From: a virus
DNA length: 64,000 bases
IMG/VR virus record: IMGVR_UViG_3300017963_000011
Span: 41,135-105,134 of that record
Reading direction: 5' to 3' (one strand)
Part shown: piece after piece, positions 28,900 through 64,000 of the stretch
Layout: every line of letters begins with the position of its first letter
Position numbering within the stretch: the stretch's first letter is position 1
The notes under the pieces: model-generated
The model's database searches: none
What the model was told of the DNA's origin: nothing
The model's input: only the letters and a program-made list of their open reading frames with translations
Program-made: the position numbers and the translations under genes

Positions 28900-28929
28900 G
28901 ATCCGTCCTTTCTAGTCTCGGCGCCGAGA

Positions 28930-29066
28930 CTGATTGCGGTAGCGGGAGATGGAATTCTACCACCCGATCATCCTTTGGTTCACGGGAACGCTAGGCATAT
29001 AGGCTCCATCCTTCCCTAGCCAGCCGCAGGGGGCCTATTCCTGCGAGCCCCGCTACCGTCAATCAG
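28930..29066 (-). ncRNA. Enlarged cloverleaf-like structured RNA
   Basis: Closing stem CGGTAGCGGG/CCCGCTACCG extended by CTGATTG/CAATCAG; internal hairpins CGCAGG/CCTGCG and GCTAGG/CCTAGC; T-arm-like GGTGG-TAGAATT-CCATC. Confidence 0.5.
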
Positions 29067-29075
29067 AATTCTCAT

Positions 29076-29150
29076 TGGGGCTGGTGACAGGAATCGAACC
29101 CGCAACCACCTCATTACAAGTGAGGCGCTCTACCATTGAGCCACACCAGC
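29076..29150 (-). tRNA. tRNA-Thr(UGU)
   Basis: GCTGGTG/CACCAGC acceptor, CCTCA-CTTGTAA-TGAGG anticodon arm, GGTTCGATTCC T-arm, encoded CCA. Confidence 0.92.
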
Positions 29151-29239
29151 CCGTCAATAGGCCGAGGGGCGACTATCCGCTTAGGCGCAGACCGGGACCG
29201 CCCTAAGTTTCAGAGGTCGCCTTTCTCCTCGATGATCTT

Positions 29240-29345
29240 TGGTGGAGGGGGCAGGATTCGAACCTGCAACTGAGACACGGGCGTATGGCGCCTTAAACCC
29301 GCGCTCACCGCTTAACGGCGCGTCTGCCACTTCCGCCACCCCTCC
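29240..29345 (-). tRNA. Aberrant tRNA-Leu-like RNA
   Basis: GGAGGGG/CCCCTCC-A-CCA acceptor, Leu-type D arm GGCGGAAGTGGCAGACGC, perfect T arm; shrunken anticodon arm (TAA) and oversized variable arm. Confidence 0.65.
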
Positions 29346-29357
29346 TTGTTCTATACG

Positions 29358-29450
29358 TGCCGGTGCGCGGGAGTCGAACCCACCACTCCGAGTCTAGTGC
29401 CCCGGCGATCATGAGGAGTCGAACCTCACCGTTTCCGAAGGACACCGGCA
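29358..29450 (-). ncRNA. Structured RNA with two T-arm hairpins
   Basis: TGCCGGTG/CACCGGCA closing stem; TGAGG-TTCGACT-CCTCA and GTGGG-TTCGACT-CCCGC. Confidence 0.55.
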
Positions 29451-29456
29451 ACTTAG

Positions 29457-29547
29457 CGGGAGAGTGAGGGATTTCAACCCTCGGGTGACATGCGCCGGCC
29501 CCGGAGGTTCAAACCGGGGACCACTCCGTCACGGAGCCCGCTCTCCC
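29457..29547 (-). ncRNA. tRNA-Ser/Sec-like aberrant RNA
   Basis: GGGAGAG/CTCTCCC-G acceptor, 6-bp D-like stem GCTCCG/CGGAGT, CCCCGG-TTTGAACCT-CCGGGG arm, GAGGG-TTGAAAT-CCCTC T-like arm; no encoded CCA. Confidence 0.5.
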
Positions 29548-29556
29548 TGTGATCAC

Positions 29557-29772
29557 CTATTCCTGATTGCGGGCCAGCGCTGCGTTGGCCCACATGATGC
29601 CTTCCTCGATCTTCCTGATCGCGAGCGTTTGCTCGGCGCACTGCGGCGTGTACTTGAGGATCGCCTCAGCCGTGATCTTGCCCATGTTGCGGAGACTCTC
29701 GAACTTGTGGATGTTCTCTTCCTGCGGTTTGTGGTACGTGAAGATCCTCTTGATGTCGGCTTCCGTGATCAT
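29557..29772 (-). CDS. Acb2/Tad1-like helical hairpin protein (putative immune-signal sponge)
   Basis: FTYHKP...FESLR...P...EQTLAIRKIEEGIMWANAALAR matches the family pattern FTYH.P...RE.SLA.TKLEEA.MWANA.IAR. Confidence 0.7.
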   Translation of the reverse strand: MITEADIKRIFTYHKPQEENIHKFESLRNMGKITAEAILKYTPQCAEQTLAIRKIEEGIMWANAALARNQE

Positions 29773-30012
29773 TTCTGTCCTCTCAGTATGCACCCTCGGG
29801 AGCGCGCCACGGGGACAGGATGGCATCTCTCCCGAGAGCGACTTTCAGTCCCCTGAGCCAGCCATGGCTATCGGCCTATCGTGCGCTAAGTATTCTACCC
29901 TAGCGCAAGGTAACGGAGCGCTACCACCGGCTGATCCTGGGAAGTATATCCTGCCCCTTTCCCAGGCCACCGTGTCAGGTCACTTTTTCAACACGGTGGT
30001 AGCGCTACCACT

Positions 30013-30979: not shown

Positions 30980-31543
30980 CTATACCTCCGTGGTAACGGC
31001 TCTGGTCGCCTTTCGGATCTGTTTGAGTATGGGTTTCACCTGATGCGTTTCCAGGTAGAGTTCCTCGCCTATTTCACGCTTGGACATCCCCGCCAAGCGC
31101 CCGATGAACACGCGTTTCTGGATCGGACTCAGCCTCTCCATCACTTCCTCGATTATGTCGTGAACGACTCCCTTCAATCCAACCATGCTCGGCAAGAGTG
31201 GTACGGTAGTTAGGTTCTTACGTCTCAGAAATCTATGCCGAAGGATCATCTTGATCCTATTGTGCGCTGCATCCCAGAAATACTTGAAGAATGAAAAGCT
31301 CTCGTAGCACTCTTGGCATCGTCGGGCGCACTGCCAGAGAACTTCGTCGAGCAACACCGCGACTTCCTCACCTTCCTCCCAAACGACTCGGCCATACTGT
31401 TTGCCGATCTTGTAGTATACTCCGAGCACCCGACTTCTCAAACTATTAAATGCACGATCACGTTCAATCGGACACGCGCCTGCACGATTAATAGCCCGGA
31501 CCTCGAATTTCCATTCATCCCCTTCCAGTCTTTTCCGCTCCAT
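30980..31543 (-). CDS. Phage-encoded sigma70-family (SigH/ECF-like) sigma factor
   Basis: Region-2-like LWQCARR...SFFKYFWDAAHNRIKMILR and region-4 HTH LSPIQKRVF...GMSKREIGEEL. Confidence 0.7.
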   Translation of the reverse strand: MERKRLEGDEWKFEVRAINRAGACPIERDRAFNSLRSRVLGVYYKIGKQYGRVVWEEGEEVAVLLDEVLWQCARRCQECYESFSFFKYFWDAAHNRIKMILRHRFLRRKNLTTVPLLPSMVGLKGVVHDIIEEVMERLSPIQKRVFIGRLAGMSKREIGEELYLETHQVKPILKQIRKATRAVTTEV

Positions 31544-34742: not shown

Positions 34743-34908
34743 CCTTCACCTCCCGCTTGTAGCAGTTCTCGTATTTCCTGATCCGTTTCTTCTCTGCTTG
34801 GATCATATCGCAGATGAGAGTCCTTGGCATGTTCTGGCTCAAGTCATAGTCATCCAGGTCATTGGTCACTGTGAAGACTTCACCCCCGCAGATGATAGCT
34901 AGTTTCAT
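34732..34908 (-). CDS. Hypothetical protein
   Basis: AAAGGAG SD and ATGA overlap. Confidence 0.5.
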   Translation of the reverse strand: MKLAIICGGEVFTVTNDLDDYDLSQNMPRTLICDMIQAEKKRIRKYENCYKREVKDGE

Positions 34909-35252
34909 CGAAGCTCCTTTTCGGTCAGTTCTTTGTTCTTGCGCAGTTCGGGGAAATACTGGTCGACCAGTTGTTTGGCATGCCAGTTGGCTTGCTCGAA
35001 CATCTCGGGCTCGCCGTCCCAATCGTACATGGTCACGTGTGCGCTGTCGAATTCGAGTTCGCGCCTCATCTTCTTCAGGATCGAGGTGCGGTTCCACTTG
35101 AACGCCTCACGCTCGATCTCGTGTACGGTGAGGCAAGATTGGAATTCTCTGAGCAGCACATTGATGATCTTGTACCTGCCGACTCGATGCTTCACCGAGA
35201 TCGAGAGCCTTGGCACACCGTCCTTGCTCACTGTCGCTTTCATTCTTGCCAT
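34905..35252 (-). CDS. Hypothetical protein
   Basis: Start MARMKAT directly follows the palindrome at 35267 and an SD. Confidence 0.6.
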   Translation of the reverse strand: MARMKATVSKDGVPRLSISVKHRVGRYKIINVLLREFQSCLTVHEIEREAFKWNRTSILKKMRRELEFDSAHVTMYDWDGEPEMFEQANWHAKQLVDQYFPELRKNKELTEKELR

Positions 35253-35522
35253 GTCAACCTTCCTAATCTCGGCGCCGAGAATGCCACCACTCGGGAGGCT
35301 GGCCGACACCGCCATCGAAGAGATCGCACTTTGGTTGATCCCCGGAGTTCTTGAGGTCAGGGTTGTTTCCGTAGGGGCACTTCTTGCCCCACCAGAGCTT
35401 GCACTGTTTGCACTGCATTGTAGCGCTACCACCATTCCGCTGTTACGAGAAGAAGTGTAAGTACGAAGCCGACGATCAGGCCGGCGGCGATCGGGCCGGG
35501 CGGGATCTCCCACCACGGTGCT

Positions 35523-36305: not shown

Positions 36306-37304
36306 ATGCTAACCGAGACACTCAGAAAGTTCCACCGCTCGCAGAGCGGTTCGCCCGTATTCTCACTCCCTTCCGGGAAGCGCGTTGATCTGCGAGAGAA
36401 GCGCTCTCGGCAGGATCTTGCCAAGTGGATCGCCGAGCAGTTCAACGGCGATCTTGATGCGGCCGACGACGCAGTGAGTTCTGTCATGGCAAGGGCATTG
36501 AGGGAAGCCCGAGCCCCTTGGCCATACCTCCTATCGGCTCTCCGTGGTATCGCCGAAGAAGCTGACACGAGAGAGCCTCTTTCTCGCCAATGCACGAATG
36601 CCATGTTCTCCTCTCGCATCGGCAAGTGCCACTACCGCATCGCTCGCAATGTGCTCGGCGACCTTACCGACCCCCTCACCCTTAGTGGCCGAGAATACAA
36701 CCTGTCAAATTCCGACGACTACTCGCTGGCCGTTCAAGAACTTCTAGGCGATGACCCTTTCCCGCTGTTCATGGCCACTGCCCCTCAGTTCGCCAAGTTC
36801 ATTACGAGCCGGCGCCTCGTCGATGACTTGATCCAGTACCGTGCCATCACCAACGACGTGAGCGAGGCAAAGGAAGCTCAGGCTACCTTTCTCGGCTTTG
36901 TCGGGCAGGCACTTGCACAGTGTGTTTTGACGAATGAGTTCCGTGAATGTCTCAAGGTCATCAAGAGCTTCTATTCCCGGTTCTTCCACCCGGCTATCCT
37001 CGGGGTGAGGGTGCCGGGTATCGGAGTCATGCGCTGTCTTAGCAACGCAGGCTATCGTGAGTTTCTCCACGCCCTCTTCAGGCACCGGCAGGATCACGAA
37101 CTCCTACGCTCCGATTGGTTGCGGCAGGCGTTGCACCTGGGCATCGTAACGAACCCTATTTCGTGGCTCGTGTTCATACTCACCCGGAACGTTGATACCG
37201 CCGAGGACTGGATGGATGTCCAGTGGTATGATACAATTAAGATGACGCAGGAGTTTGGACTCAGGCGTGTAACTGAGCTTTTCCCGAATCTGGTGGCGGT
37301 ATGA
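36306..37304 (+). CDS. Hypothetical protein
   Basis: 332 aa; TAAGGAG SD; opposite strand to its surroundings. Confidence 0.75.
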   Translation: MLTETLRKFHRSQSGSPVFSLPSGKRVDLREKRSRQDLAKWIAEQFNGDLDAADDAVSSVMARALREARAPWPYLLSALRGIAEEADTREPLSRQCTNAMFSSRIGKCHYRIARNVLGDLTDPLTLSGREYNLSNSDDYSLAVQELLGDDPFPLFMATAPQFAKFITSRRLVDDLIQYRAITNDVSEAKEAQATFLGFVGQALAQCVLTNEFRECLKVIKSFYSRFFHPAILGVRVPGIGVMRCLSNAGYREFLHALFRHRQDHELLRSDWLRQALHLGIVTNPISWLVFILTRNVDTAEDWMDVQWYDTIKMTQEFGLRRVTELFPNLVAV

Positions 37305-37867
37305 GTAAAGATCCAGCAGTCGAGGTCTATGACGACGATGATGAGTTCTTCGATACCGAGGAAGACGAGGAACTCACTAGCGTTCAGAAGGTTTGGAGAG
37401 CCCGGCAAGTAGCCGTGTTCTTCTGCACCGGCAAGAACTTCGAGGACATCGCTCAAGAACTTGAAGTGACCGCTGACACGGTGCGTCGATGGTTCAACAC
37501 GCCCGAGTGTCAGAAGGTCATCAACAAGATCCAGCACAGCGACATCAAGCTGGCTCGGAATAGTCTCCGTGAAGTTCTCCCTGATTTCTGCGATCGGCTC
37601 AAGACCGACATCCAGAACGAGGGCGATAACACGTACCAAGCGATGAAGCTGTACGCCAAGGTGATGGGCCTTGATGAGCGGCAGAAGGGCACGGACGCTG
37701 CGCTCTCGAACTACGAGGAAGTCATGCGCATGGTCTTTGGCGATGACGATGAGGATGACATCACCGAAATCGCGCATCCTAGTCAACTCCTTTCTGAGAC
37801 AACAGAAACCAACTCTCACGATGATGACGATGAAGAGGAGGCTTCTAGCGAGGTAGACGACACATAA
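37301..37867 (+). CDS. Helix-turn-helix protein with acidic termini
   Basis: GKNFEDIAQELEVTADTVRRW HTH; ATGA overlap with the upstream gene. Confidence 0.75.
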   Translation: MSKDPAVEVYDDDDEFFDTEEDEELTSVQKVWRARQVAVFFCTGKNFEDIAQELEVTADTVRRWFNTPECQKVINKIQHSDIKLARNSLREVLPDFCDRLKTDIQNEGDNTYQAMKLYAKVMGLDERQKGTDAALSNYEEVMRMVFGDDDEDDITEIAHPSQLLSETTETNSHDDDDEEEASSEVDDT

Positions 37868-38409: not shown

Positions 38410-38593
38410 CGTCGTCCACCTCCAGTGCTCGACCATCGCTGGTGTGCATGAGTGCGCAGGCCATGCAGACGTAGATCCTGCGGCCATATTTCTCGCTTTC
38501 TTGTGGATCGTATTCGAGGATCTCCCCGCACTCGGAGCATTCGATCGGATCATTGTACTCGTCATAGATTGCCAGGACCAGATCGTCATCCAC
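38390..38593 (-). CDS. Small Zn-ribbon protein
   Basis: CSECG...CMAC. Confidence 0.5.
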   Translation of the reverse strand: MDDDLVLAIYDEYNDPIECSECGEILEYDPQESEKYGRRIYVCMACALMHTSDGRALEVDDDGGGDA

Positions 38594-38792
38594 AGTACAC
38601 GTTTCCTTTCGGGTAGGGGTAGGCGATGGTCTTGCCGTCTTCGGTCTTGATCTCTCCGTGCTTGATCTTGTCCGTCTTGCCCAGGAAGAAATCGTGACGG
38701 ATGTTGTGATCGGGGCACTCGATCGTGCCATCCTGATTGAAGATGAAGACTAGCTTCTCGGGCTTATCCACATCGTTGTCCACAGTATCCAC
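38586..38792 (-). CDS. Hypothetical protein
   Basis: Starts just after the palindrome at 38803 and an SD. Confidence 0.55.
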   Translation of the reverse strand: MDTVDNDVDKPEKLVFIFNQDGTIECPDHNIRHDFFLGKTDKIKHGEIKTEDGKTIAYPYPKGNVYCG

Positions 38793-39076
38793 ACCCTCTC
38801 ATTCTCGGCGCCGAGATTAGTTGACCTCTGGGTGGCTGCTTGCGTAGAGGTTGATCTCGGCCCACCATACGAGGTAGTCGTCGTCCTTTGACCAGAGCCA
38901 GTTCCAGTAGTGGTGCTCCCCCGGCCAGTTAGGCCGGTCCCGCATTAGATAGTGGAAGGACTCAGGGTCATCCTCGAATAGCAGGAACAGCCTCTGGCGC
39001 AAGAGGCGGAACTCCAGCTTCTTCTTGTACTGGTAGAACAGAACCCTCTTGCGCCTGACCGGATCGAAGACCCAAC

Positions 39077-39298
39077 TCAGGTCGTCATCTTGACCTTCGG
39101 CTTCGGTTTCACCTTGTCGTCGTCGTAGTACGTCTCCTTCTTCGTCTCGTCCAGGGTCACGAAGCCGTCTGTCAGCCATTTCGTCTTCTCACATGCCTTC
39201 CCTTTGAAGCCTTGCATGTCGATGTTGATCTTGCCGTCTTTCCAGGTCACGATGATGCGCTTGCCATCGTACTCGCTTACGAAGCCGTCACCTGCCAT
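39077..39298 (-). CDS. DUF2997-like protein
   Basis: DGKINIDMQGFKGKAC...YY pattern, downstream of the DUF1257-like and AAA genes. Confidence 0.7.
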   Translation of the reverse strand: MAGDGFVSEYDGKRIIVTWKDGKINIDMQGFKGKACEKTKWLTDGFVTLDETKKETYYDDDKVKPKPKVKMTT

Positions 39299-39789: not shown

Positions 39790-41610
39790 CTACAACCTGA
39801 CTTTCTTCTTCACGCGCTTCTTGCCGTTTCCTTTGGCACGGTGCTTGTCGGGATCGTAGGCGAGCGGGATGTTGCCGTCCAGTGCCCACTGCCTGTACTG
39901 CTCGGTCCTCTCTGGGTGAGTCACGCTTGCCGGCGTGGTATTCTTGATCGTCTCCAGGAACATAGCCGTTGTGGCCTTCTGGTCTGGAGCCCGGTAGGCT
40001 TTCTTGAGCACGGCCTTCGCCAAGCTCTCGATTTCGGAACCGGACCACCCTTCCAGGTCCACAGCGATGCGGCAGATCTCGAAGTCCTCGGAGTTGTAGT
40101 TGTTCATCTCGTTCCGTCGCTTGTCGATGTGATATCGCAGGATCTGCTCGCGAGCCTCTGGCTCGGTCGGGAGATCCATGAACCACTTGCCATCGGTGTC
40201 GATGCGGTGGCCACCGAACAACTCGGGCGGCAGCTTGCTTGGGTCGTTGCTGGTGAAGATGAAGTAGACGCCCTCCCGCTTCTTATGATCCGAGAGAAAG
40301 CTCAGGAACGTTCCGAAGAAGCGCTTGGTCGTGCCGGCGTCCACTTTGTCGGAACTGTCCGACCCGCCCAGCCCCTTCTCCACCTCGTCGATCACCACGA
40401 ACACCGGGCTCAGTGCCACACAGGTGTCCAGCGCCCGCCTGAGCTTGGCGTTCGTTTCACCGATGTGCGAGGAGAAGCATTTCTCCAGGCGCAGGATCAG
40501 CGTGGGCTTCTTCGCCTTGCTCCCGAGCCTCTTGGCTACGGCCGTTTTGCCGGTCCCGGAGGGGCCGACGAGCAGACAACCGAGAGGCCACGAGCCGATG
40601 AACTCTTTGGCTTTTTTGGTGAAGGCATCGACCAGTTCGTCGAAATACGCCATCAAGTCATCGCAGCCTTTGATGCCTTCGAGTGGTTCGTCCGGGTCAC
40701 AGAACTCCATGATGCCATCCTTGGCGAGGATCTCGGCCTTCATCCGTCCGACCACGAGAGGATCGAGCACGCCATCCCGACTCAGCGAGAGAGCCGTGAT
40801 ATTCATTGCCTCCTGACGAGTCAGACCTCGGAGCCCTTCGGCGATCTCCGAAACGGTGAACTCGCCAAGGATCTCGGCTCGTTCCTCGTCCGTTTCTGCG
40901 TTCTCAAGGATGACCTCGACAACCTTCTCCAGGTCAGGCTGCGTAGGCAGTGGCAGATGGAACTTGCGGAAGCATCGGCTCAAGCGCTCGGGCACCTCAT
41001 CGTTGCCGGTGAGGATGATGATGAGCGAGCCTGTGCTCTCGTATTCCATCTTGCGAAGTCGCAGCATGTCGGCCACGCCTTCACGATCGAAGTAGCGGTC
41101 GAAGTCTTTGAGGACAACGCAGACCGGCTCATCCTCGGTGGAAGGGACATTCACGGCATCGTCCAGGGCAGCGCCGAATTGCCGGAAGAAGTTGCGTAGC
41201 GAGAGGAAGCGCTCGTTCGGGGCCGGCTCGATGCTGATGCCGCTCTTGAAACGTTGCTTCAACTCGGGTCGGCTGGAGATCATCTCGCGGATCGTGAACA
41301 GCTTGTTGTCCACCGGGCGAGTGACCATCATCTGGCGAATGGGAGCGACGATGTTGCCGTCCTCATCGACCTCGTTGTCCTCGTAGTCGGCCAGACCACG
41401 GGATGCGTCCCACTCATACACATGCAGCGGCGGGTAGTATTCGTCCTCTCCCTCTTTCGGCCGCTTGCGTTTGACCTTCTTGTGGACCGCTTCCGCGATC
41501 AGTTCCATGGCTTCCTCGTAGTCGTGGGACACCAGCCATGCGGCGCCCCCTCCCGACGAGGCGAAGTGGTGCAAGTCCTTGACGATGGGCTTGCTGAACT
41601 CCTGATCCAT
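39790..41610 (-). CDS. AAA+ ATPase (Ycf46-like)
   Basis: Walker A GPSGTGKT, Walker B VIDEVEKG, TSND.SKLPPEL; degenerate N-terminal AAA domain (VLKDFD). Confidence 0.9.
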   Translation of the reverse strand: MDQEFSKPIVKDLHHFASSGGGAAWLVSHDYEEAMELIAEAVHKKVKRKRPKEGEDEYYPPLHVYEWDASRGLADYEDNEVDEDGNIVAPIRQMMVTRPVDNKLFTIREMISSRPELKQRFKSGISIEPAPNERFLSLRNFFRQFGAALDDAVNVPSTEDEPVCVVLKDFDRYFDREGVADMLRLRKMEYESTGSLIIILTGNDEVPERLSRCFRKFHLPLPTQPDLEKVVEVILENAETDEERAEILGEFTVSEIAEGLRGLTRQEAMNITALSLSRDGVLDPLVVGRMKAEILAKDGIMEFCDPDEPLEGIKGCDDLMAYFDELVDAFTKKAKEFIGSWPLGCLLVGPSGTGKTAVAKRLGSKAKKPTLILRLEKCFSSHIGETNAKLRRALDTCVALSPVFVVIDEVEKGLGGSDSSDKVDAGTTKRFFGTFLSFLSDHKKREGVYFIFTSNDPSKLPPELFGGHRIDTDGKWFMDLPTEPEAREQILRYHIDKRRNEMNNYNSEDFEICRIAVDLEGWSGSEIESLAKAVLKKAYRAPDQKATTAMFLETIKNTTPASVTHPERTEQYRQWALDGNIPLAYDPDKHRAKGNGKKRVKKKVRL

Positions 41611-41642
41611 TGTATTCCGTCCTCTCATTCTCGGCGCCGAGA

Positions 41643-42665: not shown

Positions 42666-42666
42666 G

Positions 42667-50166: not shown

Positions 50167-50354
50167 TTGTTCGTGCGCATTGCCTCGTTGAACTCGTCCT
50201 TCGTCACGTAGCGATTGTCACAAGCGGCCTCATCCTTTGGACAGGTGGGCGTACACTTGCATCCCTTGTAGAAGAAGAGACATCCCGAGCACAGGTCGCC
50301 GATGTGATCCTCTTCTGTCTCGCCGTACCACGGCATCCTCTTAGGCTTTCGCAT
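50130..50354 (-). CDS. Small Cys-rich protein
   Basis: Palindrome 50367 and AAGGAGG SD. Confidence 0.55.
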   Translation of the reverse strand: MRKPKRMPWYGETEEDHIGDLCSGCLFFYKGCKCTPTCPKDEAACDNRYVTKDEFNEAMRTNKCNHYASARRTA

Positions 50355-51832: not shown

Positions 51833-51858
51833 AGTTGCCTCCATTCTCGGTGCCGAGA

Positions 51859-52071
51859 TTACTTGCTCATCAGCGTGCGCCACACGCTGCCTTCACCCTT
51901 GAGAACGACCCGACTCGTGGGCTCACCGTTGACGAGATCCACGACGAGCATGAGAGCCGTGACCCATGCTTGCTTGGCGAGTTCTCTGTACTTGGCGAGC
52001 GCTCTCCCGTAGTTCGTAAACGGCTCTGGCTTAGTCTTGCCGAATTGCGGGTTCACGATGACGAAGTACAT
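51859..52071 (-). CDS. Hypothetical protein
   Basis: Palindrome 52087 and GAGGAG SD. Confidence 0.6.
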   Translation of the reverse strand: MYFVIVNPQFGKTKPEPFTNYGRALAKYRELAKQAWVTALMLVVDLVNGEPTSRVVLKGEGSVWRTLMSK

Positions 52072-52189
52072 TCGGGCTCCTCTCATTCTCGGCGCCGAGA
52101 TTGATCGGCACCGAATTCGTACTTGGCTTCTCAGGGGCGATGTGCATGCCCCTCTACCCTATAGGGCCGAGAATGGCAAGGTTGTACGC

Positions 52190-52279: not shown

Positions 52280-52348
52280 CTCAATCACCTCCCGATCAAG
52301 GGAACACATTGTTCAACCTATAGTGCCGAGAATGGCAACGTGGTAGCG

Positions 52349-52681
52349 CTACGCTCTGGGATCTCCGATGTAGGTGCCATCGGCTCTGAAGTCGCCGCCC
52401 TTGTGGCCAACGATCCGAGCCATCTTTCCCTCGCCAGCGTACCATAGATCACCGAGCCAGTCACAGATGTTGCACGCGGCCCAATAAGCAAACTTCTCGC
52501 CATTGCCGCAACCAAAGTCTTCGTACTTAGGCCACGCCTGATTGGGGAAGCGTACCTCGATCCGGCGCATGCGCTTGTAGAGCGGGCAGGCTTTGCCACC
52601 GTGTCTGTCTTCGAGGAAGCAATGCCAGGCAATGAAGAGGTCCATTCGAGTGAAGGTGCCATCCCAATGACCCTTGAACAT
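52349..52681 (-). CDS. Hypothetical protein
   Basis: Promoter motif 52747, palindrome 52693, GGAGG SD. Confidence 0.6.
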   Translation of the reverse strand: MFKGHWDGTFTRMDLFIAWHCFLEDRHGGKACPLYKRMRRIEVRFPNQAWPKYEDFGCGNGEKFAYWAACNICDWLGDLWYAGEGKMARIVGHKGGDFRADGTYIGDPRA

Positions 52682-52715
52682 TCAGCCTCCATTCTCGGCG
52701 CCGAGAATGAGCGCC

Positions 52716-52859
52716 GATCCGATCCGATGCGATTCGCAAATGCTCTCACCCTATAGGGCCGAGAATGGCAACGTTGATCCGGCGCGATTGATCCCATGCG
52801 ATTCGCTCATGATCCGACGCGATTCGCCTTGATCCGACGCATGATCCCATGCGATTCGC
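52716..52859. repeat. Direct repeats GATCC(G/C)A(T/C)GCGATTCGC
   Basis: Full copies at 52721, 52790, 52811 and 52843; partial copies at 52776 and 52831. Confidence 0.75.
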
Positions 52860-52863
52860 GTAT

Positions 52864-52895
52864 AAAAAAAAAAGCCCCGCACATTGTGCGGGGCT
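52864..52895 (-). terminator. Intrinsic terminator
   Basis: AGCCCCGCACA-A-TGTGCGGGGCT followed by a long T run on the minus strand. Confidence 0.85.
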
Positions 52896-52943
52896 CGTCT
52901 CCGTCGCCTCTTGCGGCCGATAGAATGTTGGGTATATGTTGTG

Positions 52944-52961
52944 TCAATGATCGGGATGCAT
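52944..52961 (-). other. Minigene MHPDH behind an SD
   Basis: GGAGGT-AGTC-ATG CAT CCC GAT CAT TGA, upstream of a terminator. Confidence 0.4.
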
Positions 52962-54132
52962 GACTACCTCCAGAGTAAGAGCGCGCCCCCCTGTTTTATT
53001 AGACGGCGGGGGGCTAGTTAGTACCGTCATCCTCTTGATCGTTGGATGTACGCCGGGCGGCTCAACTGCTCACGAGTTATGCCTTGCAATTATCACGACT
53101 TGTGCCGTGTGCGTGGGGCCTCGGTCACAGGAGCCTTGTGCCCGTAAAACGAAACCCGGCTAGGGAGGATGGGAAGTGTCGTAGTTGTTACGGAGCACTG
53201 ATCCTCATTCCATTCTCGGCGCCGAGAATGCCGGTCACTCTCGGCCGCCCTTCGGCTTTGGGCTTGCTGCCCGTCACCCTATAGTGCCGAGAATGGCAAG
53301 CCTCTGCCGGGACGCGTTTCTACATCTATTATATAGCATGTTTCCAGGTCGTATTCCACTACCCTCTCGCGCGCGTGCGCACGCACCACTACCCTCTCGC
53401 ATGTGTGTTCTCGTTTTCACCACCTTACCCGTCACCACCCTCTCATGCGCGTTATCACCACCTTACCCCCCACCACCTTATCGACGCGTATCACCCCCGT
53501 GCGTCATGGTTGACGCCTCGACGGGTCTACGCGCGGGCGGGCGCGGGTTGACGGGTCTACGCGGGCGGGCGCGCGTATAGTATATATAGACACGAGAGAC
53601 GCGCGCGGGCGCCCGCGCCCGCGAAGAAAGGAATCGCACGCGCGCATGCGGGCGCGCGTCCTATAGACGGGCGGGCGCGTCTATCGGGCCGGCTCGCTTC
53701 CTTTTCTTCGGGCGTGCGGGCGGGCGCATGCGTGCGCGCGTCCTATAGACGGCGCGCGAATCCATTGAATCAGCGGGCGCCGCCCATGCTACGTCTCATG
53801 GCGTAGCGCTACCACGGGCGGGCGCCGGCCGCCGGCTCGGGCCGGCGGCCCGAGCGGCCCGCAAGGCGGCGCCAGATTCGCCACGAGAGCGCCGGAATCG
53901 GCCCGAATTGGGCCGCAAGCCAGCCGGCCCGAGTATCGGCCCGGCTCGGCCCCTTGCGGCCGTTAGACGGCGAATCTGCTAGACGCTACGCACGCGCCCG
54001 CGTCTATATAGTACATGACGCACGGGCACGGGCGCGCGAAGAAAAGGAAAGGGCCGGCCCTTTCAATGCGTAGACGGGCGCGCGTATAAAGAAAGCCGCC
54101 GGGCACGGCCCGGCGGCGCTGGCGCTCGGCTG

Positions 54133-54773: not shown

Positions 54774-54854
54774 GTGTGTTCCCCTTTCGGGAGTCTCGGC
54801 CGGCCGCTCGGCTCGGCGGCTCGGGCCGTCTAACCTATGTCGCCGAGAATGGCA

Positions 54855-54870
54855 AGCAAGGGCCGTGCCA
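54855..54870 (-). promoter_or_regulatory. Sigma54 -24/-12 promoter
   Basis: TGGCAC-GGCCC-TTGCT. Confidence 0.8.
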
Positions 54871-55302
54871 GCCGGGCCGCATTCTCGGCGCCGAGAATGA
54901 GCCGGCGCTTCGTATCATGACGCCCGATTCATTAAATTTTTTTGCCCCTGTATAGTACGCGTGCATGCGTCTATATATAGGGGCCAAATTGCTTCCTTTT
55001 CTTCGGGCGCACGGGCGCGCGCCCGTGCGGGCGCGTGCGTATAGTATATATAGACATGTATCGTCTAGCAGATTCGCCGTCTAACGGCCGATCGCCTTTC
55101 ATGCGGCCCGATACTCGGGCGGCCGGCCGATCGGCCGAATCCGGCCCGATTCCGGGCGTCTCGTGGCGAATCTGGCGCGCCGCTCGGGCGCCCGAGCGGG
55201 CCGCCGGCCGGCGGCGGGCGTAGCGCTACCACGAGACGGCGCGCGCGCGTATAAGAAAAGCCGCCGGCCGATCGGCCGGCGGCCCGAGTCTCGGCGCCGA
55301 GA

Positions 55303-55710
55303 CTACATGCGGCGGCGGCGCCGGCTCTCGTGCTCTCGCCATTCGCGCCGCATGCGGGCGTCTCGGCGGCGGGCGTCTCGATCGCGCCGCTTGTAAAGCC
55401 TACGTATGGCGTGCTCGGCGCGCTTATACGTCTCGCTCTCGGGCTCGAATTGCCCGAGTAGATTCCACAGTGGCGAATCGTCACACGTCATGCCTTCGCC
55501 GTGCTCGTTTACGGCTTGCGCTACTCGATTCAGCGCTTCGGCCGCGCCTTTTGCCATGTCTCGGGCCGTGCGGCGCTCTCGCTCGGCGCCGGGCCGGCCG
55601 GCGGCTTCGGCGAAGATTCGCATGTCGTCTTGTCTCGTGGCGTTTTTGTACATGACGCCCGCCATGAGACGCAACATGAAGGCGACGACGTTTCGCGTGT
55701 CTTTGTCCAT
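55303..55710 (-). CDS. Hypothetical protein
   Basis: 135 aa; stop abuts palindrome 55289, then a terminator. Confidence 0.6.
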   Translation of the reverse strand: MDKDTRNVVAFMLRLMAGVMYKNATRQDDMRIFAEAAGRPGAERERRTARDMAKGAAEALNRVAQAVNEHGEGMTCDDSPLWNLLGQFEPESETYKRAEHAIRRLYKRRDRDARRRDARMRREWREHESRRRRRM

Positions 55711-56050: not shown

Positions 56051-56066
56051 TGCAAGGGCCGTGCCA
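56051..56066 (-). promoter_or_regulatory. Sigma54 -24/-12 promoter
   Basis: TGGCAC-GGCCC-TTGCA. Confidence 0.85.
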
Positions 56067-56434
56067 TTCTCGGCCATGACATGTCAGCCGTGCCCGAGCA
56101 CGGCGCCGAGAGCGAGCCGGCCCATGTTCTTGGCGCCGAGAATGGCGGGCGCCAGCCGGGCCGAGACTGACAGCCATGCCAGTCTCGCCGAAGCATACAA
56201 TGTCAGCCGAGCGGCTGAAAGCCGCTTCCAGAGCGGATTAGAGCCTACTGACAAAAATGTCAGTATGGCTGACATGGATGCCAGCCGGGCCGGCCTTATA
56301 GTAGACGGGCGCATGACGCGCGCCCGCACGCGCGCCCGCACGCGCGCCCGAAGAATCGGAAGCGATCGGCCATACAACGCGCGCGGGCGGGCGCGTAGAC
56401 TGCGCCCGCGTCATGTATATAGGGCCGCCGAGCT

Positions 56435-56450
56435 TGGCACGGCCCTTGCA
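56435..56450 (+). promoter_or_regulatory. Sigma54 -24/-12 promoter
   Basis: TTGGCAC-GGCCC-TTGCA. Confidence 0.85.
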
Positions 56451-56662
56451 TAGCAATCGGCGGCCGAAGGGGAAGCGAGGAAACGGCCGGCGCCATTCTC
56501 GGCGCCGAGAATATGACGGCCCGAGCCGGGCCGAGTATTGCCAGACATAGCACGGGCACGGGAAAGGCGGCCGGCGCCGGCCGAGAGCGGCGCGCGATAG
56601 TTCTTTGACATGTGAATACGAATCAACGCGTATCAACTACTGACATGCGAAAGGGAACACGC

Positions 56663-58102
56663 ATGAAGAAGAAACGCAAGAAAGGCGAATCCGTCAAGAC
56701 GGGCGCGCGTGGCGCAAACGTGCCGAAACAAAAAGCCGCCGCCGAGCGCAAGGCGGCCGAGAGCAACGCCCGAGACAAGAAAGCAGCCGGAATCAAGCCG
56801 CCGCCGCCCGTCAAGCCGAGCCCGGCGCCCGAGCCGAAGCCGGCCGAGCCCGCGCCGAATCCCATGGCGGCGCCCGAGACGCTTCATGACGGCAAGACGA
56901 GCAAGCCGAACACGCCCGGCGCGCCCGTAGCGCTGCATGGCTCGCTCATTCTCGAAACGTTCATGGGCGCCGCCGTCGCTCTCGTGTGTCGTCTCATGCT
57001 CGGCGCGCTTTATGACGAAGCCGCCGCGCTCATGGAAGCGACGAAGGCCGAACGCGCCGAGCTTGACGGCAAGACGGCGCCGAAGACGGCCCGAGACATG
57101 GACAAGAAACGCGCCGCTCTCACTACGCGCTACACTCGCACGCAAGACAATGCAATCAAACGCGGCGCGTATCTCGCCGTGATTCTGGCGACATGGGACA
57201 TTCGCCTTGACTTTACGGGAACGAACACGGCCGCATGGACATGGGCGCGTGACATTAACGGGAAAATCGTGAAAGACGAAAAGACGGGCAAGCCGAAGCG
57301 CATGACTGTCAAGCTACAAGACGTGTTCATGTCCGTACTGACACAAAACTACGGAAGCGCCATGAAGGAATTGCAATGCCTTCGCACGGCCGCCGAATTC
57401 CTGCCAGTATGCCCGGAAGCGATCCGGGCCGCTCTCGTGCCCGAGAGCGACGGCGCACGGCCCGAGAGCGAGAGCGCGGCAAGCATGGGGCTCGTGCTCG
57501 ATTTTCTTGCCAAACACGTGCATACCGATTCCGTGCCATACGTAAGGAAACACGCGAAGGAAAAGGGAATCGGCGTCACGTGGCAAGCTCTCACAAACGA
57601 GAGCGAGCGCGCCGCGCTCGGCCGGCCCGACAAAGGCAAGGGGAAGGGGAAAGACAAGACGAAAGGCAAGCCGCCCGCGAAGAAAAAGCAAAAGCATGTG
57701 AACGTCTACAACGCACGCGGCGAAAAGGTTACGCTTGACATGGAACGCGCCAAGAATGCAGCCGCCGCCGCCGAAGGCAAGGCCGAAGAGAGTGAAACGG
57801 AGCGCGCCGCCCGTATCGTCGATGGAGTAGACATGAGCGAAACGGAGCGCGAAGCCGTCAAAAAGGCGCGCGAAGCCGGTCTGAATGACGGATGGGCCGC
57901 GCTTCGAAGCCTCGCGTCTCAACTCATGGGCGATCCGAGCACCGAAGGCTTCGACATGACGGGCGCCATGATTTTCGTCGAATGGCTCTCGGGACAAATC
58001 GCGGCGGCCGGAGACGCCGCCGCCGAGCGGGCCGAGCTTAGGCATGCCACGTCGAAGGCTAACAAGGCGGCCGTAGTGGGCGCCGCCCGAGTGAACGCGT
58101 AG
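56663..58102 (+). CDS. Lys/Ala-rich hypothetical protein (479 aa)
   Basis: Long ORF with a GAAAGGGAA SD; followed by a hairpin and T-tract at 58111-58145. Confidence 0.75.
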   Translation: MKKKRKKGESVKTGARGANVPKQKAAAERKAAESNARDKKAAGIKPPPPVKPSPAPEPKPAEPAPNPMAAPETLHDGKTSKPNTPGAPVALHGSLILETFMGAAVALVCRLMLGALYDEAAALMEATKAERAELDGKTAPKTARDMDKKRAALTTRYTRTQDNAIKRGAYLAVILATWDIRLDFTGTNTAAWTWARDINGKIVKDEKTGKPKRMTVKLQDVFMSVLTQNYGSAMKELQCLRTAAEFLPVCPEAIRAALVPESDGARPESESAASMGLVLDFLAKHVHTDSVPYVRKHAKEKGIGVTWQALTNESERAALGRPDKGKGKGKDKTKGKPPAKKKQKHVNVYNARGEKVTLDMERAKNAAAAAEGKAEESETERAARIVDGVDMSETEREAVKKAREAGLNDGWAALRSLASQLMGDPSTEGFDMTGAMIFVEWLSGQIAAAGDAAAERAELRHATSKANKAAVVGAARVNA

Positions 58103-59032: not shown

Positions 59033-59048
59033 TGCAAGCGCCGTGCCA
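59033..59048 (-). promoter_or_regulatory. Sigma54 -24/-12 promoter
   Basis: TGGCAC-GGCGC-TTGCA. Confidence 0.85.
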
Positions 59049-59367
59049 TGTTTCGGCTGACATAGCAGACATGAGCGAGCCCGCATGACTACGGCCGGCG
59101 GCCCGCTCATTCTCGGCGCCGAGACTGGCGAGACTGGCATGGCTGTCAGTCTCGCCGAAGCCCGGAATGTCGGCCGAGAGCCCGAGAGCCGCCATGGAAG
59201 CGGATTTGAGCCTACTGACATTTTTGTCACTACGGCTGACATGGATGCCAGCCGCCGGCCCTATATAGTATACGCTCGCATGACGCGCGCGCCCGCGCGT
59301 GCCCGAAGAAAAGGAAGCGATCCGGCCCATGAACGTGCGCGCGTCATGTATATAGGGCCGCCGAGCT

Positions 59368-59383
59368 TGGCACGGCCCTTGCA
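59368..59383 (+). promoter_or_regulatory. Sigma54 -24/-12 promoter
   Basis: TTGGCAC-GGCCC-TTGCA. Confidence 0.85.
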
Positions 59384-60707: not shown

Positions 60708-60723
60708 TGCGATTCCCGTGCCA
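60708..60723 (-). promoter_or_regulatory. Sigma54 -24/-12 promoter
   Basis: TTGGCAC-GGGAA-TCGCA. Confidence 0.75.
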
Positions 60724-61432
60724 AGTCTCGGCGCTGGCATGTCAGCCGAGAGCCCGAGCGCGCACGAGAGCCGGCGCCGGGCCGGCTGCTCGCTAGTCTC
60801 GGCGCCGAGAATGCCGCAAGGGCCGAATCGGAATTCTCGATTCCGATTTTTTCGGCGAGAGGCTCTCAAATCCGCTTCCAGAGCGGCTTTCCAGCGATCG
60901 GAACTCCCGGTTCCGATCGGAATTGTCAGTTCCGATTTTGCCCGCAAGCCGCCATGAGAGCCGAAGACAGCCGAGCCGGTCCCTATAGTATACATGCCCG
61001 TGCGCACGCCCGCATGACGCGCGCACGGGCGCGGGCGCGAAGAAAAGGAAGCGATCCGGCCCATGCTACGCGCGCCCGCGCCCGTCTTGTGTCTATATAG
61101 ACACAAAAGACGCCCGCACGGCGGCCGGCCACCGATTCCGGCTGGCGCGGCCCCAAAATACGCCACGAGAGCGCCGGAATCGGCCCGGATTCGGCCGATC
61201 GCAAGCCGGCCCCTATCTCGGCCCGTCTCGCCGAGCGATCGGCCCGGATTCGGCGAATCTGCTAGACAAGCGGCGCGCGCACGCGTCTATATAGAGACAT
61301 GGCGCACATGCGCGCACGCCCGCCCGCGCACGCGAAGAAAAGGAAGGGGAAAAGCCCCCTATAGACGCGCACGGGCACGCGCGCACATGAGAAAAGCCGC
61401 CGGGCCGGCCCGGCGGCTCTCGTGCGGCTCTC

Positions 61433-61624
61433 CTATCCTACGAGCAAGAGAGAGCCGTCCATGAACGCGCTAACCTTTTCGCCCGGCTTCATGTTGCCCG
61501 CATAATCGTACATTTCGCCAGCCGAGACGGTAAACCATGCATAGTCGTCTCGATTCATAATCACCTTGACTTGAATCGCGCTGGCTCTGTTTACCGCGTT
61601 CATAAGCTCGTGTCGGTCCATCAT
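61433..61624 (-). CDS. Hypothetical protein (63 aa)
   Basis: GAAAGGGG SD before MMDRHELMNAV; terminator downstream. Confidence 0.6.
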   Translation of the reverse strand: MMDRHELMNAVNRASAIQVKVIMNRDDYAWFTVSAGEMYDYAGNMKPGEKVSAFMDGSLLLVG

Positions 61625-61675
61625 TTTCGGCCCCTTTCGTCTTGCGGGCGGCTTGCCCGGCTCGCCATTCTTCAA

Positions 61676-61691
61676 TGCAAAGCGTGTGCCA
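61676..61691 (-). promoter_or_regulatory. Sigma54 -24/-12 promoter
   Basis: TTGGCAC-ACGCT-TTGCA. Confidence 0.85.
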
Positions 61692-62138
61692 AGTCTCGCG
61701 CCCGCTGTACACTCTACCACGCCCGCGCCCGTATTCCCCTATAGACGCACGGCGCGAAGAGCAAGGAAGCGAAAAAAGCCGCCCGAGCCGCCGGCCGCCG
61801 CCCGGCGCTACTGACAGCCATGCCAGTCTCGGCGCCGAGAATGACCACGAATCCGGGCCGGCCGGCTGCGCTCAAATCCGCCATGGGCGCCGTTTTGCGG
61901 CCCATACTGACATTTGTGTCACTAGCCGACATTGAGAGCACCGAATCGGCCGAGAGCCGCGCCAGCAAAGCAATACAAGCCGGCCGCCGGCTCGTGCTAC
62001 TGACAAAAATGTCAGTCCCTATATACGTATAAGCGCACGCCCGCATGCGCGCGCCCGTGCGAAGAAAAGGAAGGGATTCGGCCCTATAGACGCGCACGCG
62101 CCCGCATGCGCAGTGTAGCGCTACCACGAGCCGAAACA

Positions 62139-62154
62139 TGGCACGGCGCTTGCA
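62139..62154 (+). promoter_or_regulatory. Sigma54 -24/-12 promoter
   Basis: TGGCAC-GGCGC-TTGCA. Confidence 0.85.
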
Positions 62155-62180
62155 CTAAGGCAAGCGAAAGGGGAAACGAA

Positions 62181-62291
62181 ATGAGCAAGCGAGAACGAAA
62201 CGCCCGCCGCCTCGACTGGCTTATGCAATCGTTCATGGTCGCCGTTATGACGGCCGCCATTCTGGCCTATAACGGTACGATCGTATTCTAG
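62181..62291 (+). CDS. 36-aa membrane peptide
   Basis: GAAAGGGGAA SD; basic N-terminus then a hydrophobic helix. Confidence 0.55.
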   Translation: MSKRERNARRLDWLMQSFMVAVMTAAILAYNGTIVF

Positions 62292-62307
62292 GAAAGGGGA
62301 AAAGACA

Positions 62308-62574
62308 ATGACGCACGAGGAATTCATGAAGCGCCGCGCCGAGCTTTTCGAGGAAGCGAAGCGCATTCTTCGCACGCTGGCGCCCGAGACTCGCATGGCG
62401 AGTGAAACCGAAAAGAGCACGGCCGAGCTTTTCGAAGCCGCGCCGCTCTCGTGCCCGTACTGCGCAAGCAATAACACGAGCACATGCGATTTTGGCGGCC
62501 CGTTTTGCCTCGATTGTGGCGCCACGTTTGACGGCGCCGGCTTCGTCAACGGCGAATGGACGGGCCGCCAGTAA
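62308..62574 (+). CDS. Small Zn-ribbon protein
   Basis: GAAAGGGGAA SD; CPYC...CLDC; terminator near 62595-62625. Confidence 0.65.
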   Translation: MTHEEFMKRRAELFEEAKRILRTLAPETRMASETEKSTAELFEAAPLSCPYCASNNTSTCDFGGPFCLDCGATFDGAGFVNGEWTGRQ

Positions 62575-64000
62575 ATACGCCCGCAAGCATGCAGCCGGCC
62601 GCCGAAAGGCGGCCGGCTCTCTTTATACGCGCATGCCCGCGCCCGCCGTCTTTATTCCCCCTTTATGCGCATGCTTTATATACGCATACGCCCGTATATA
62701 AGGCAAGGAATCCCTACCTTTTCTTCGCACACGCGGGCGCTTATACGCTAGTAATATACATATACGAGCCCGCTTATACATGTATAAGCGTCTATGCGTG
62801 CGCTACTGTACACACGCACGCACGAAGGAAACGGCTCGGCACGGCTGGCAGTATGGCCACGAGGAGGGCCGCAAACGGCCCATTTTGGGCCGATCGGCCT
62901 TCGGCCCTTGCATCGGTATGGCTCGGGCGTATATCGGGCCGGATTCGGGCGCTTAGGGGCTCGGCTTTCTCGTCAATCTCTCGGGCTCGGCTGAACCTTC
63001 CCGCACGCACGCGCGCATGTACGCGTGGCGATCCGAAACATGGCATGCTGGCCAGTGTAGCGCTACCACGAGACGGCGGCCCGGCTTGCGGCTGACATGG
63101 CAAGGCGGCGGGCTCGGCGCTGGCTTGTCAGTCTCGGCGCCGAGAATGCGGCGGCTGACAAGTCAAGGCGCGGGCGTGCTACTGTCAACGCTGTCATATC
63201 AAGCACGTATCCCTTTACTGGCGCGCGTTTCGGCATTGACATGACAACGTTGCCAGTATGGCGCGGCTGACAAGTCAACGCGCAAGAGACGGGCACGGGC
63301 GGGCGTGTGTAGCGTATAGCGCGGGCGCCCGATTCCTTTCCTGGCGCGGGCGCGGGCGTGTGTAGCATATACCACGGACGCGGGCGCCCGTCGACGGGCG
63401 CGGGCGTCTTGCGCGCTCCGTGTGGCCTACCGGGAAACGTTAGACGTATACGTACGAGGCGGCCCACTCCCACGCAGATTTTTTTCAGAAATCCTGGACG
63501 ACCGGAATTCCGTGGTAGCGCTACCACTCGATGCGACTTTGCGCATCGAGTACGACGGTGGTACAGGCTACCAATGGTAGCTGCAACATCAGAAATAAAG
63601 CCGAGGGCCGCCTGAAATCTCAGTATCAAAAAGGTTGCAAACGTATGTGTACACGCTACATTGTGTACATATTACATCGCAAAATGTACCGAGAGCGACT
63701 ACAAAAGTGCGCGTTTTATCCGCTTTTCGCTCATAACAGCGTATTTCTTATTGATCTCTATGCCGATGTAGCGCCTGCTCAGAGAGCAAGCAGCGAGTCC
63801 TGTAGTACCTGCGCCAGAGAATGGATCTAACACGATGCAAGGTACGGTTTCTTCGGTATCGCATGCGCACATCTGCTGCCAGCCTAGTGTGTGATAATCT
63901 GCTACTCCGCGGGTTACGGTCTCGTCTAGTGCTTCTCGTTTGCCTATTTCTCTGAAGCCAGATGCTACCGGGCCTTTGCGTGTAGAGGACTTCCGTTCAA

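Follow-up and report, generated by a model that had tools for sequence, protein, structure and literature searches.

The window analysed here is the 64-kb stretch formed by bases 41135-105134, the last 64 kb, of the 105,134-bp IMG/VR virus record IMGVR_UViG_3300017963_000011, and the element in question is a 14-bp palindrome, TCTCGGCGCCGAGA, of which the window holds exactly 22 perfect copies. The ends of the record overlap by 123 bp, which indicates a circularly closed assembly. The genome is that of an uncultivated, siphovirus-like tailed phage encoding portal, protease, major head and tape-measure proteins, a replication set comprising family-B DNA polymerase, SNF2 helicase, DnaB, RecA, Toprim and ThyX, and two DNA methyltransferases. 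Structural genes run rightward to ~14 kb of the window, and from 14 to 56 kb the genes run leftward, with the minus strand as coding strand. The genes at 38-53 kb are ORFans, and the segment from 53.5 to 63.5 kb has 63-68% GC, is dense in repeats and carries few credible open reading frames (ORFs). No tyrosine integrase (PF00589) was found in the 105-kb genome by a search with positive controls, no repressor was recognised in the phage, and an Rfam search of 28-64 kb gave one tRNA as its sole match.

All exact copies of the palindrome lie in the last 35 kb of the 105-kb genome, none occurs in the first 70 kb, and 100 dinucleotide-preserving shuffles produce none. The initial annotation, which was made from the letters of the window, had reported at least 22 copies with none in the first 21 kb, and both count and positions held. 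Allowing mismatches adds four near-copies, at 21226, 51845 and 56128 with one mismatch each and at 56098 with two. The sequence is also present in DNA runs from at least two studies and is therefore no assembly artefact.

Symmetry and placement of the palindrome

The palindrome is accompanied by an A at −2 and a T at +2 in 22/22 sites, so that the true unit is 18 bp long and has the form A-N-core-N-T (A-N-TCTCGGC|GCCGAGA-N-T). The ±1 positions enclosed by this outer pair are complementary in only nine of the 22 sites, in agreement with the earlier description of flanks whose N positions do not always pair; read on the half-site strand they are T, G or A and never C. The 14 core positions and A−2/T+2 are invariant across the 22 copies, and flanks more than ~11 nt away on either side are unrelated. 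Three subfamilies of palindrome plus Shine-Dalgarno sequence (SD) can be distinguished, in which similarity reaches 8-11 nt downstream and includes the SD. Compensatory changes are absent from the four variants, in each of which only one strand is altered: one has a changed centre, one a G.A mismatch, one a C.A mismatch and one multiple changes. In RNA form the core folds into a 5-bp stem capped by a GCGC loop, at −4.7 kcal/mol or, when CAU/AUG flanks are included, −9.3, and in native 79-nt contexts the hairpin probability exceeds 0.7 in only 8 of 16 sites. Since invariance comes without compensatory change, the ±1 positions are mostly unpaired and the hairpin is weak, each position is evidently selected for its identity and not for pairing. 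The pattern points to sequence-specific recognition of both halves, either by a dimer on duplex DNA or by base pairing to another nucleic acid, and it favours the initial proposal that a dimeric DNA-binding protein fits better than an RNA stem.

On the minus strand, a start codon lies 10-18 nt past the end of each of the 14 exact sites of the 28.9-52.7 kb interval and of the variants at 21226 and 51845, which bears out the claim that sites in this interval stand just before an SD and start. At these 16 sites a purine-rich SD with the loose consensus aTGaaaGGa begins 3-8 nt past the palindrome, the start codon is ATG in 15, and seven of the downstream starts are identical to public gene calls. 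The 10-18 nt rule holds for 15/16 sites as scored by script and for 3% of intergenic positions, and the binomial P of ~1e-21 uses the script's 15/16 with intergenic positions as background; the sixteenth site, 51845 (12 nt), was placed by hand. Stop codons abut eight exact sites, as TAA or TAG at −3 in seven (55289 included) and as TGA at −4 in one, and variant 51845 likewise has TAA at −3. At 50367 and 51206 the palindrome forms the last codons of the upstream ORF, read LGAE in a frame hand-derived from the ORF coordinates, and 35267 may be a third such case. Both the abutting stops and the LGAE endings had been noticed initially and are confirmed.

Between 38 and 52 kb, seven of nine short spacers (20-45 nt) consist of palindrome and SD alone, and gene pairs that overlap or touch contain no copy. 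Most non-overlapping junctions of the replication module, which is encoded on the same strand, lack a palindrome, which therefore is not a general requirement for translation. The eight copies at 53.2-63.1 kb show no start linkage. As first described, the palindrome marks gene junctions in the gene array, provided that it is read on the minus strand. The attribution to an accessory arm fits the ORFans of 38-53 kb, but copies also precede genes of the replication module and fill the GC-rich, non-coding repeat region.

The individual sites of the gene array are as follows. On the minus strand, the near-copy at 21226-21239 reads TCGCGGCGCCGAGA, directly follows a copy of a second palindrome of this phage, GTAGCGCTAC, and has the SD and ATG of 20772-21215 16 nt downstream. 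The exact copy at 28916-28929 is followed by the SD AAAGGA and, at 16 nt, by the ATG of a 57-aa gene (28726-28899); it ends a non-coding stretch that contains a tRNA-Thr(TGT) at 29076-29150 (−) and that follows a gene for an Acb2/Tad1-family anti-defence sponge (29557-29826, minus strand; PF24729, E 4e-13). The copy at 35267-35280 precedes the SD AGGAAGG and, at 14 nt, the ATG of 34905-35252. The TAA of 38817-39179 abuts the copy at 38803-38816, which is followed by the SD GAGAGGG and the start of 38586-38792, and the copy at 41629-41642 lies between the TAA of a 360-aa gene (41643-42725) and the SD and ATG of an AAA ATPase gene (39790-41610). The TAA of 44266-44778 abuts the copy at 44252-44265, which leads through ATGAAAGGAC to the ATG of 43950-44234 at 17 nt, and the TAG of 45271-45702 abuts the copy at 45257-45270, which leads through CTGAAAGGACTCTGAC directly to the ATG of 44821-45240.

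Further along the array, the flank of the copy at 47079-47092 is overlapped by the TGA of a 75-codon gene (47094-47321, minus strand), and GGAGG and the ATG of 46875-47066 follow; an ATGA overlap couples the 75-codon gene to an upstream 233-aa gene. The copy at 48036-48049 was the example chosen by the initial annotation and, on the minus strand, indeed reads TAA, palindrome, ATGAAAGGACTCTGAC and the ATG of 47318-48019. The copy at 49203-49216 is abutted by the TAA of 49217-49609 and leads through ATGAAAGGA to the ATG of 48598-49188. The two copies encoded as LGAE stand at 50367-50380, in ORF 50341-50823, with AAGGAGGG and the ATG of 50130-50354 at 12 nt, and at 51206-51219, in ORF 51192-51689, with GGGAG and the ATG of 50813-51190 at 15 nt. 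The near-copy at 51845-51858, whose centre reads GCAC in place of GCGC on the mRNA strand, retains the order TAA, palindrome, GGAGG and ATG. The three remaining exact sites of the array, at 48510, 52087 and 52693, lie in leaders.

Promoter-like motifs, half-sites and candidate regulators

Five copies and two variants of a 24-nt motif, TTGCCATTCTCGGC(C/A)CTATAGG(G/T)T, occur on the minus strand. As the initial annotation had noted, a half-site is embedded in it: the left half, CCATTCTCGGC, is built in with its CAT flank immediately upstream of CTATAGG, and the match to the palindrome stops exactly at the dyad centre. Two copies of the motif stand directly after strong intrinsic terminators and all copies head leaders, for which reason the motif is very probably a promoter; the same placement would put its half-site upstream of the likely transcription start. 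In the gene array, four of the six motifs have a full palindrome 36-59 nt past the TATA|GGG junction, each with a degenerate right half before it, and the remaining two run directly into an SD. Several palindromes are followed by the start context CTGACATGGCAA(G/A)A (45257-45215 and 48036-47994 on the minus strand, and also at 35267 and 47079), whose complement, TTGCCAT, also forms the 5′ end of the 24-nt motif.

All of these motifs lie on the minus strand. The motif at 48556-48579 (TTGCCATTCTCGGCCCTATAGGGT) includes the left half-site exactly as far as the dyad centre, and the palindrome at 48510-48523 lies in its leader 36 nt further on, preceded by the right-half remnant GGCGCCGAGCAA and followed by the ATG of 48050-48493 at 16 nt. 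The motif at 52156-52179, also with a half-site, has a terminator with a T10 run just upstream; the palindrome at 52087-52100 lies 59 nt past it, with the degenerate right half GGTGCCGATCAA before and the ATG of 51859-52071 at 15 nt. The motif at 52748-52771 has a half-site and is followed after 45 nt by the palindrome at 52693-52706, GGAGG and the ATG of 52349-52681 at 11 nt. The motif at 53276-53299 likewise has a half-site, and the palindrome 52 nt past it, at 53214-53227, is extended by CAT/ATG flanks into a 20-bp perfect palindrome. The motif at 52315-52338, with its half-site, has the second palindrome immediately upstream and no full copy after it, and the variant at 44794-44817 (TTGCCAATCGCGGCCCTATAGGGT), with a degenerate half-site, stands directly before the SD and ATG of 44266-44778.

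The motif at 53276-53299 and its 20-bp palindrome head a transcription unit without an ORF (52872-53279, minus strand), in which ~300 nt of non-coding sequence end at a strong terminator (52896-52872). The unit may encode a phage non-coding RNA, and it has no Rfam match.

The GC-rich region contains eight sigma-54-like elements, TGGCAC-N5-TTGC, on both strands, against ~0.1 expected by our own estimate; they include those at 54856-54870(−), 56052-56066(−), 56435-56449(+), 59034-59048(−), 59368-59382(+), 61677-61691(−) and 62139-62153(+), and five of the elements are identical (TGGCACGGCCCTTGC). Half-sites overlap or flank three of them. By our arithmetic, the palindromes and half-sites around these elements are centred at about −45, −63 and −93, overlap the −24 element or the start, or lie at about +43. 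At 54842-54870 (−), TTGCCATTCTCGGC follows at once after the sigma-54-like element and its half-site overlaps the expected start. The exact palindrome at 54883-54896 lies 13 nt upstream of the same element (54856-54870, minus strand), with its centre at ~−45 from the expected start, and occupies a spacer, bounded by a strong terminator and the next promoter, that is not expected to be transcribed. The two degenerate copies, at 56098-56111 (two mismatches) and 56128-56141 (one), are upstream of the element at 56052-56066 (−). The copy at 56497-56510 lies ~43 nt past the expected start of the plus-strand element at 56435-56449, in the 5′ region of ORF 56663-58102. Of the remaining copies outside the gene array, that at 55289-55302 stands between the TAG of 55303-55710 and a strong intrinsic terminator (55285-55258) with no downstream gene. 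Four are found in the GC-rich repeat region: 59111-59124, which heads a 126-nt repeat whose other copy is 56162-56287, 60797-60810, 61827-61840 and 63132-63145. For the sigma-54-like promoters, a search of the phage genome for an enhancer-binding activator gives only a generic P-loop match to PF00158.

Canonical sigma-70-like sites are depleted (two found against 5.8 expected), and the phage encodes two sigma factors, a 252-aa RpoS/RpoD-like protein (G000 9929-10687, minus strand) and a 187-aa extracytoplasmic function (ECF)-like protein. The latter (30980-31543, minus strand) matches TIGR02937 over its full length at E 2.4e-10, just under the cut-off, has a region-4 helix-turn-helix (HTH) and, as an inference only, is a candidate reader of the 24-nt motif. 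The resemblance of the motif to T7-class promoters is probably superficial and a single-subunit RNA polymerase was not found: PF00940 gave no match in a search whose control genomes were uninformative, and the large unknown ORFs had no RNA polymerase match. A two-gene island on the plus strand (36306-37867) interrupts the minus-strand array and encodes a 332-aa protein of unknown function and an acidic 188-aa HTH protein. The latter, at 37301-37867 (+), has a weak HTH_23 match and is one of the few candidate DNA-binders that can be recognised. A weak Mu Com-like zinc-ribbon ORF, below the cut-off, lies just upstream of the 252-aa sigma gene (G000 10862-11230).

A proposed DNA operator array and its rivals

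The 18-bp unit may be a multi-copy operator for one dimeric, phage-encoded DNA-binding regulator of the early, ORFan arm, a tentative reading to which we assign a probability of about 45%. It is suggested by invariance without covariation, an invariant outer pair across an unpaired position, a weak hairpin, half-sites in promoters and copies in spacer that is probably untranscribed; an invariant A−2/T+2 beyond mostly unpaired ±1 positions would be typical of the outer contacts of a dimer on duplex DNA. The recurrence of dispersed dyad sites in this lineage points the same way, as do published arrays of this type, which were interpreted by the authors as targets of dimeric DNA-binding proteins (PMC4351075; PMC3203893 for ESAS). 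Full palindromes that head translational units and that lie 36-59 nt past the repeated promoters of the arm would be sites of the regulator, and the single half-sites within these promoters and beside the sigma-54-like promoters would be contacted as well. As it accumulates, the regulator would occupy promoters and palindromes together and change the expression of the whole arm at once, the likeliest effect being shut-off through promoter occlusion combined with elongation roadblocks. Binding by a protein, action at the level of DNA and the sign of the effect are what we infer here from sequence. Among the three functions offered by the initial annotation, a symmetric roadblock or operator network, an mRNA processing signal and a cassette crossover site, the first is the best supported.

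Several observations weigh against such an operator. The chief of them is the tight and statistically well-founded linkage to the SD, which a DNA operator does not require. Four long leaders leave 90-643 free positions and the palindrome is still found 11-16 nt from the start, with a joint chance of ~9e-7, and this adjacency even in long leaders means that genome compaction alone cannot explain it. The invariant centre, GGCGCC, is unusual for HTH operators, and the promoter half-sites are 49, 72, 58 and 65 bp from their downstream palindromes, which by our arithmetic gives no helical phasing. A roadblock just before a terminator, as at 55289, would serve no evident purpose. No binder stands out among the early genes, most of which are ORFans; the recognisable DNA-binding candidates are those at 30980-31543 and 37301-37867.

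The linkage to the SD lends weight to an operator in the mRNA, the main rival and a possible though less likely alternative, in which a hairpin or a single-stranded palindrome 3-8 nt before the SD would be read by a shared phage factor. Some 16 cistrons would then be repressed or activated together in translation, or the polycistronic RNA would be cut at each unit. The factor could be a protein, with RegA-like logic but a structured operator or as a Cas6/Csy4-like cutter, or it could be an RNA, as all copies are mutually complementary, including that at 53214 which heads the ~300-nt non-coding unit. Consistent with this, 16 of the 26 sites lie 10-18 nt before a start with the SD at their 3′ foot, in long leaders as well, seven of the nine short spacers are palindrome and SD and the overlapping gene pairs have none, and the subfamilies share 8-11 nt that include the SD. 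In four of four promoter-proximal leaders, pairing is possible between the left half and the right-half remnant upstream of it (once via G.U), allowing alternative structures; trans RNA-RNA pairing would also account for invariance at every position, and the Com-like zinc ribbon, weak as it is, is encoded elsewhere in the genome. The hairpin is nevertheless weak and often outcompeted in context, covariation is absent, and the promoter half-sites, being upstream of the likely start, would have no role in RNA. Eight copies have no SD near them and one of them is probably untranscribed, most non-overlapping junctions of the replication module lack the element on the same strand, and neither an RNase nor a RegA-like protein was recognised. 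A stronger form of this idea, that the palindrome is a post-transcriptional master switch by which the ORFan arm would be silenced or processed in one step through an mRNA-read element at the SD of ~16 cistrons, appears unlikely. The switch would be thrown by a translational repressor or nuclease, or by the ~300-nt transcript that starts with the perfect 20-nt copy at 53214 and could pair with every site, and the promoter half-sites would reflect the evolutionary origin of the element.

Recombination is the least probable of the explanations considered. According to it, genes or promoter units would be gained, lost and shuffled at the palindrome, through a site-specific enzyme that works on the dyad centre or through homologous exchange between identical copies, as proposed for the early stem-loops of T4-like phages discussed below. 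In its favour, the promoter-like motifs resemble a left half fused to foreign sequence precisely at the dyad centre, with a remnant of the right half further downstream; stop codons adjoin the palindrome in the manner of cassette ends, even at 55289 where no gene follows, and the flanking genes are ORFans. A natural comparison is provided by the soil run X4, which contains a variant strain of ~91-98% nucleotide identity, with two proteins 95% and 99% identical. Its contig skips 47095-47313, the 75-codon gene located between palindrome 47079 and the 233-aa gene's stop, and this indel ends 1 nt from the palindrome. The indel ends share TGAG outside the palindrome, which is kept, and the event looks like an ordinary gene-boundary indel that lends weak support to cassette exchange. 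It is a single event, and two other X4 replacements, at 44684-44774 and 56157-56294, are not at palindromes. Neither a tyrosine integrase nor a REP-associated tyrosine transposase (RAYT) was found, serine recombinases were not searched for, and the site is too short and too perfect for attC. Loose ends in run X2 at 45253, 48049 and 48054 were considered as rearrangements and prove to be cross-mapping among the genome's own copies of palindrome plus SD.

Another DNA-level role, or none, is also improbable. The palindrome might be a target of methylation, restriction or nicking centred on GGCGCC, a signal for replication or packaging, or a selfish repeat spreading together with the SD. The phage encodes its two methyltransferases, GCGC is central to both of its palindromes, and subfamilies of palindrome plus SD suggest copying. 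Restriction to one arm and linkage to starts would, however, be unexpected for methylation, nicking or packaging, divergent flanks around an invariant core argue for selection and not for recent spread, and no multi-copy occurrence was found in any other virus or bacterial genome searched.

Several more specific candidates can be set aside. No T-run stands after any of the 22 copies and the real terminators of the region are separate hairpins, which rejects an intrinsic terminator, and the stem is too short for an RNase III site. A repetitive extragenic palindromic (REP)/RAYT system is contradicted by the absence of the Y1 transposase PF01797, and an integron attC array by the absence of IntI/PF00589 from the 105-kb genome and by copies that are identical over 14-18 bp. 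The ParB_N domain of a ParB/parS-like system was not found, and an origin as a host multi-copy operator is disfavoured by motif searches that gave no more than single matches in bacterial genomes.

Related arrays and significance

Dispersed dyad sites are not restricted to the start-linked palindrome. The second palindrome, GTAGCGCTAC (often TGGTAGCGCTACCAC), has 35 copies across the whole 105-kb genome, about one every 3 kb, of which 23 are at junctions and 12 inside genes; examples in the window are at 2996, 8583, 21243, 39784, 52343, 55220 and 63057. It stands directly upstream of two promoter-like motifs, adjoins the variant at 21226 and has the central GCGC in common with the start-linked palindrome. 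The nearest readable relative, IMGVR_UViG_3300014208_000033 (107.7 kb, 42% GC, PolB and helicase 32% identical), contains no copy of the start-linked palindrome and has a dyad of its own, TTCCGAA-NN-TTCGGAA, with 41 genome-wide copies, many inside genes. This dyad is the counterpart of the second palindrome and not of the start-linked one. The presence of a second array here and of a separate array in a distant relative indicates that dispersed dyad sites are a habit of the lineage. Some of the relative's dyads form the tips of terminator-like hairpins, and the same genome also has a seven-copy motif, TCACATGATGCAAAAAACC.

Close relatives are scarce. INPHARED holds no close cultured relative by DNA, and PolB identity there reaches 22-26% at most; IMG/VR searches with AAA ATPase or helicase peptides returned nothing, and a profile search found relatives at 23-32% only. 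Helicase homologues at 42-48% identity exist, one of them on a 103-kb contig. The 14-mer gave single chance matches only in the viral contigs searched, the 17-mer four single matches, the 18-mer 27 single matches in unrelated bacterial genomes, where no second copy lay close by, and the 24-nt promoter motif none.

Among known repeats, the array behaves most like the start-associated sequences (SAS), together with their extended form (ESAS), of Cluster K phages and looks most like the dyad of Cluster O. The Cluster K SAS is a 13-bp, asymmetric, highly conserved and SD-containing sequence 3-7 bp before start codons, and the ESAS has imperfect 17-bp arms around a variable spacer of 4-13 bp that the authors read as sites for a dimeric DNA-binding protein (PMC3203893). 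Similar start-linked motifs occur in Microbacterium Cluster EF phages (PMC7302621), and the function of SAS and ESAS was unknown and untested as of 2025 (PMC12699233). The present array shares with them repeats of the 10-20-copy type restricted to the non-structural half of the genome, upstream stops that are sometimes within the motif and a strong preference for ATG, and with the ESAS an inverted repeat that directly precedes the SD in selected non-structural genes (16 sites here). Unlike in the SAS, the SD segment here has only a loose consensus and three subfamilies; unlike in the ESAS, the arms are perfect invariant 7-mers (9 with flanks) without a spacer; and unlike in either, promoters contain a half-site and one third of the copies lie away from starts.

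The Cluster O palindrome, TGTTCGG-N3-CCGAACA, spans 17 bp and has more than 30 copies with invariant arms, distributed genome-wide with about one third inside genes; it is explicitly not linked to translation starts, and binding by a dimeric protein was predicted by its authors (PMC4351075). Shared features are more than 20 copies, invariant 7-bp arms, a seemingly non-temperate siphovirus, the highest density in an arm of small leftward genes and many intergenic copies. The copies described here differ in being confined to one arm and start-linked, and the Cluster O description fits the second palindrome better. The stoperators of Cluster A/L5, as they are described in PMC3203893 and PMC4351075, are 13-bp asymmetric sites oriented with transcription in both arms of temperate phages, where one repressor binds them and blocks elongation in prophage silencing. 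Many short identical sites in short intergenic gaps are common to both, and blocked elongation is also what we propose here, whereas the present sites form a perfect 14-bp dyad (18 with flanks), for which no orientation can be defined, in one arm only of a phage in which a tyrosine integrase was not found. The promoter-early stem-loops (PeSL) of T4-like phages combine a sigma-70 promoter with a terminator stem-loop and were proposed to drive modular shuffling (PMC2839356, PMC4122927). They too are repeated regulatory units between small ORFan early genes, but the intercistronic copies here have neither promoter nor U-tract, and sigma-70-like sites are depleted. Elements of attC type are imperfect palindromes of 57-141 nt that vary by cassette, unlike the identical 14-18-bp sites of this array.

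Two other systems offer partial parallels. The conserved inverted repeats (CIRs) of the temperate Streptomyces phage phiC31 are multi-copy inverted repeats bound by the phage repressor and associated with near-identical non-canonical promoters, so that multi-copy dyad operators occur together with near-identical non-canonical phage promoters, as here; phiC31 is temperate. The lambda nut/boxB element and the Mu Com target are RNA hairpins with 5-bp stems, of which a genome has one or two, recognised by a phage protein mainly via the loop, boxB tens of nucleotides downstream of early promoters and the Com target just upstream of the SD. A small hairpin with a 5-bp stem and a position near early promoters or the SD are shared, but here there are 22 copies with invariant stems. 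The defining features of SAS/ESAS, the Cluster O dyad, stoperators, PeSL, attC, REP elements and terminators are each absent in part from this array.

The array belongs to a kind of element already known from actinophages, and a start-linked perfect dyad with a promoter half-site is a new form of it. Start-linked invariant repeats of phages have been catalogued for 15 years, none with a demonstrated function, and the present array is a very clean case, with a perfect dyad, a fixed SD-adjacent placement and a half-site inside a conserved promoter. If the sites are an operator network, a lytic phage could switch an arm of ~40 small genes with one protein, and the unit would also provide a compact orthogonal module of operator and ribosome-binding site.

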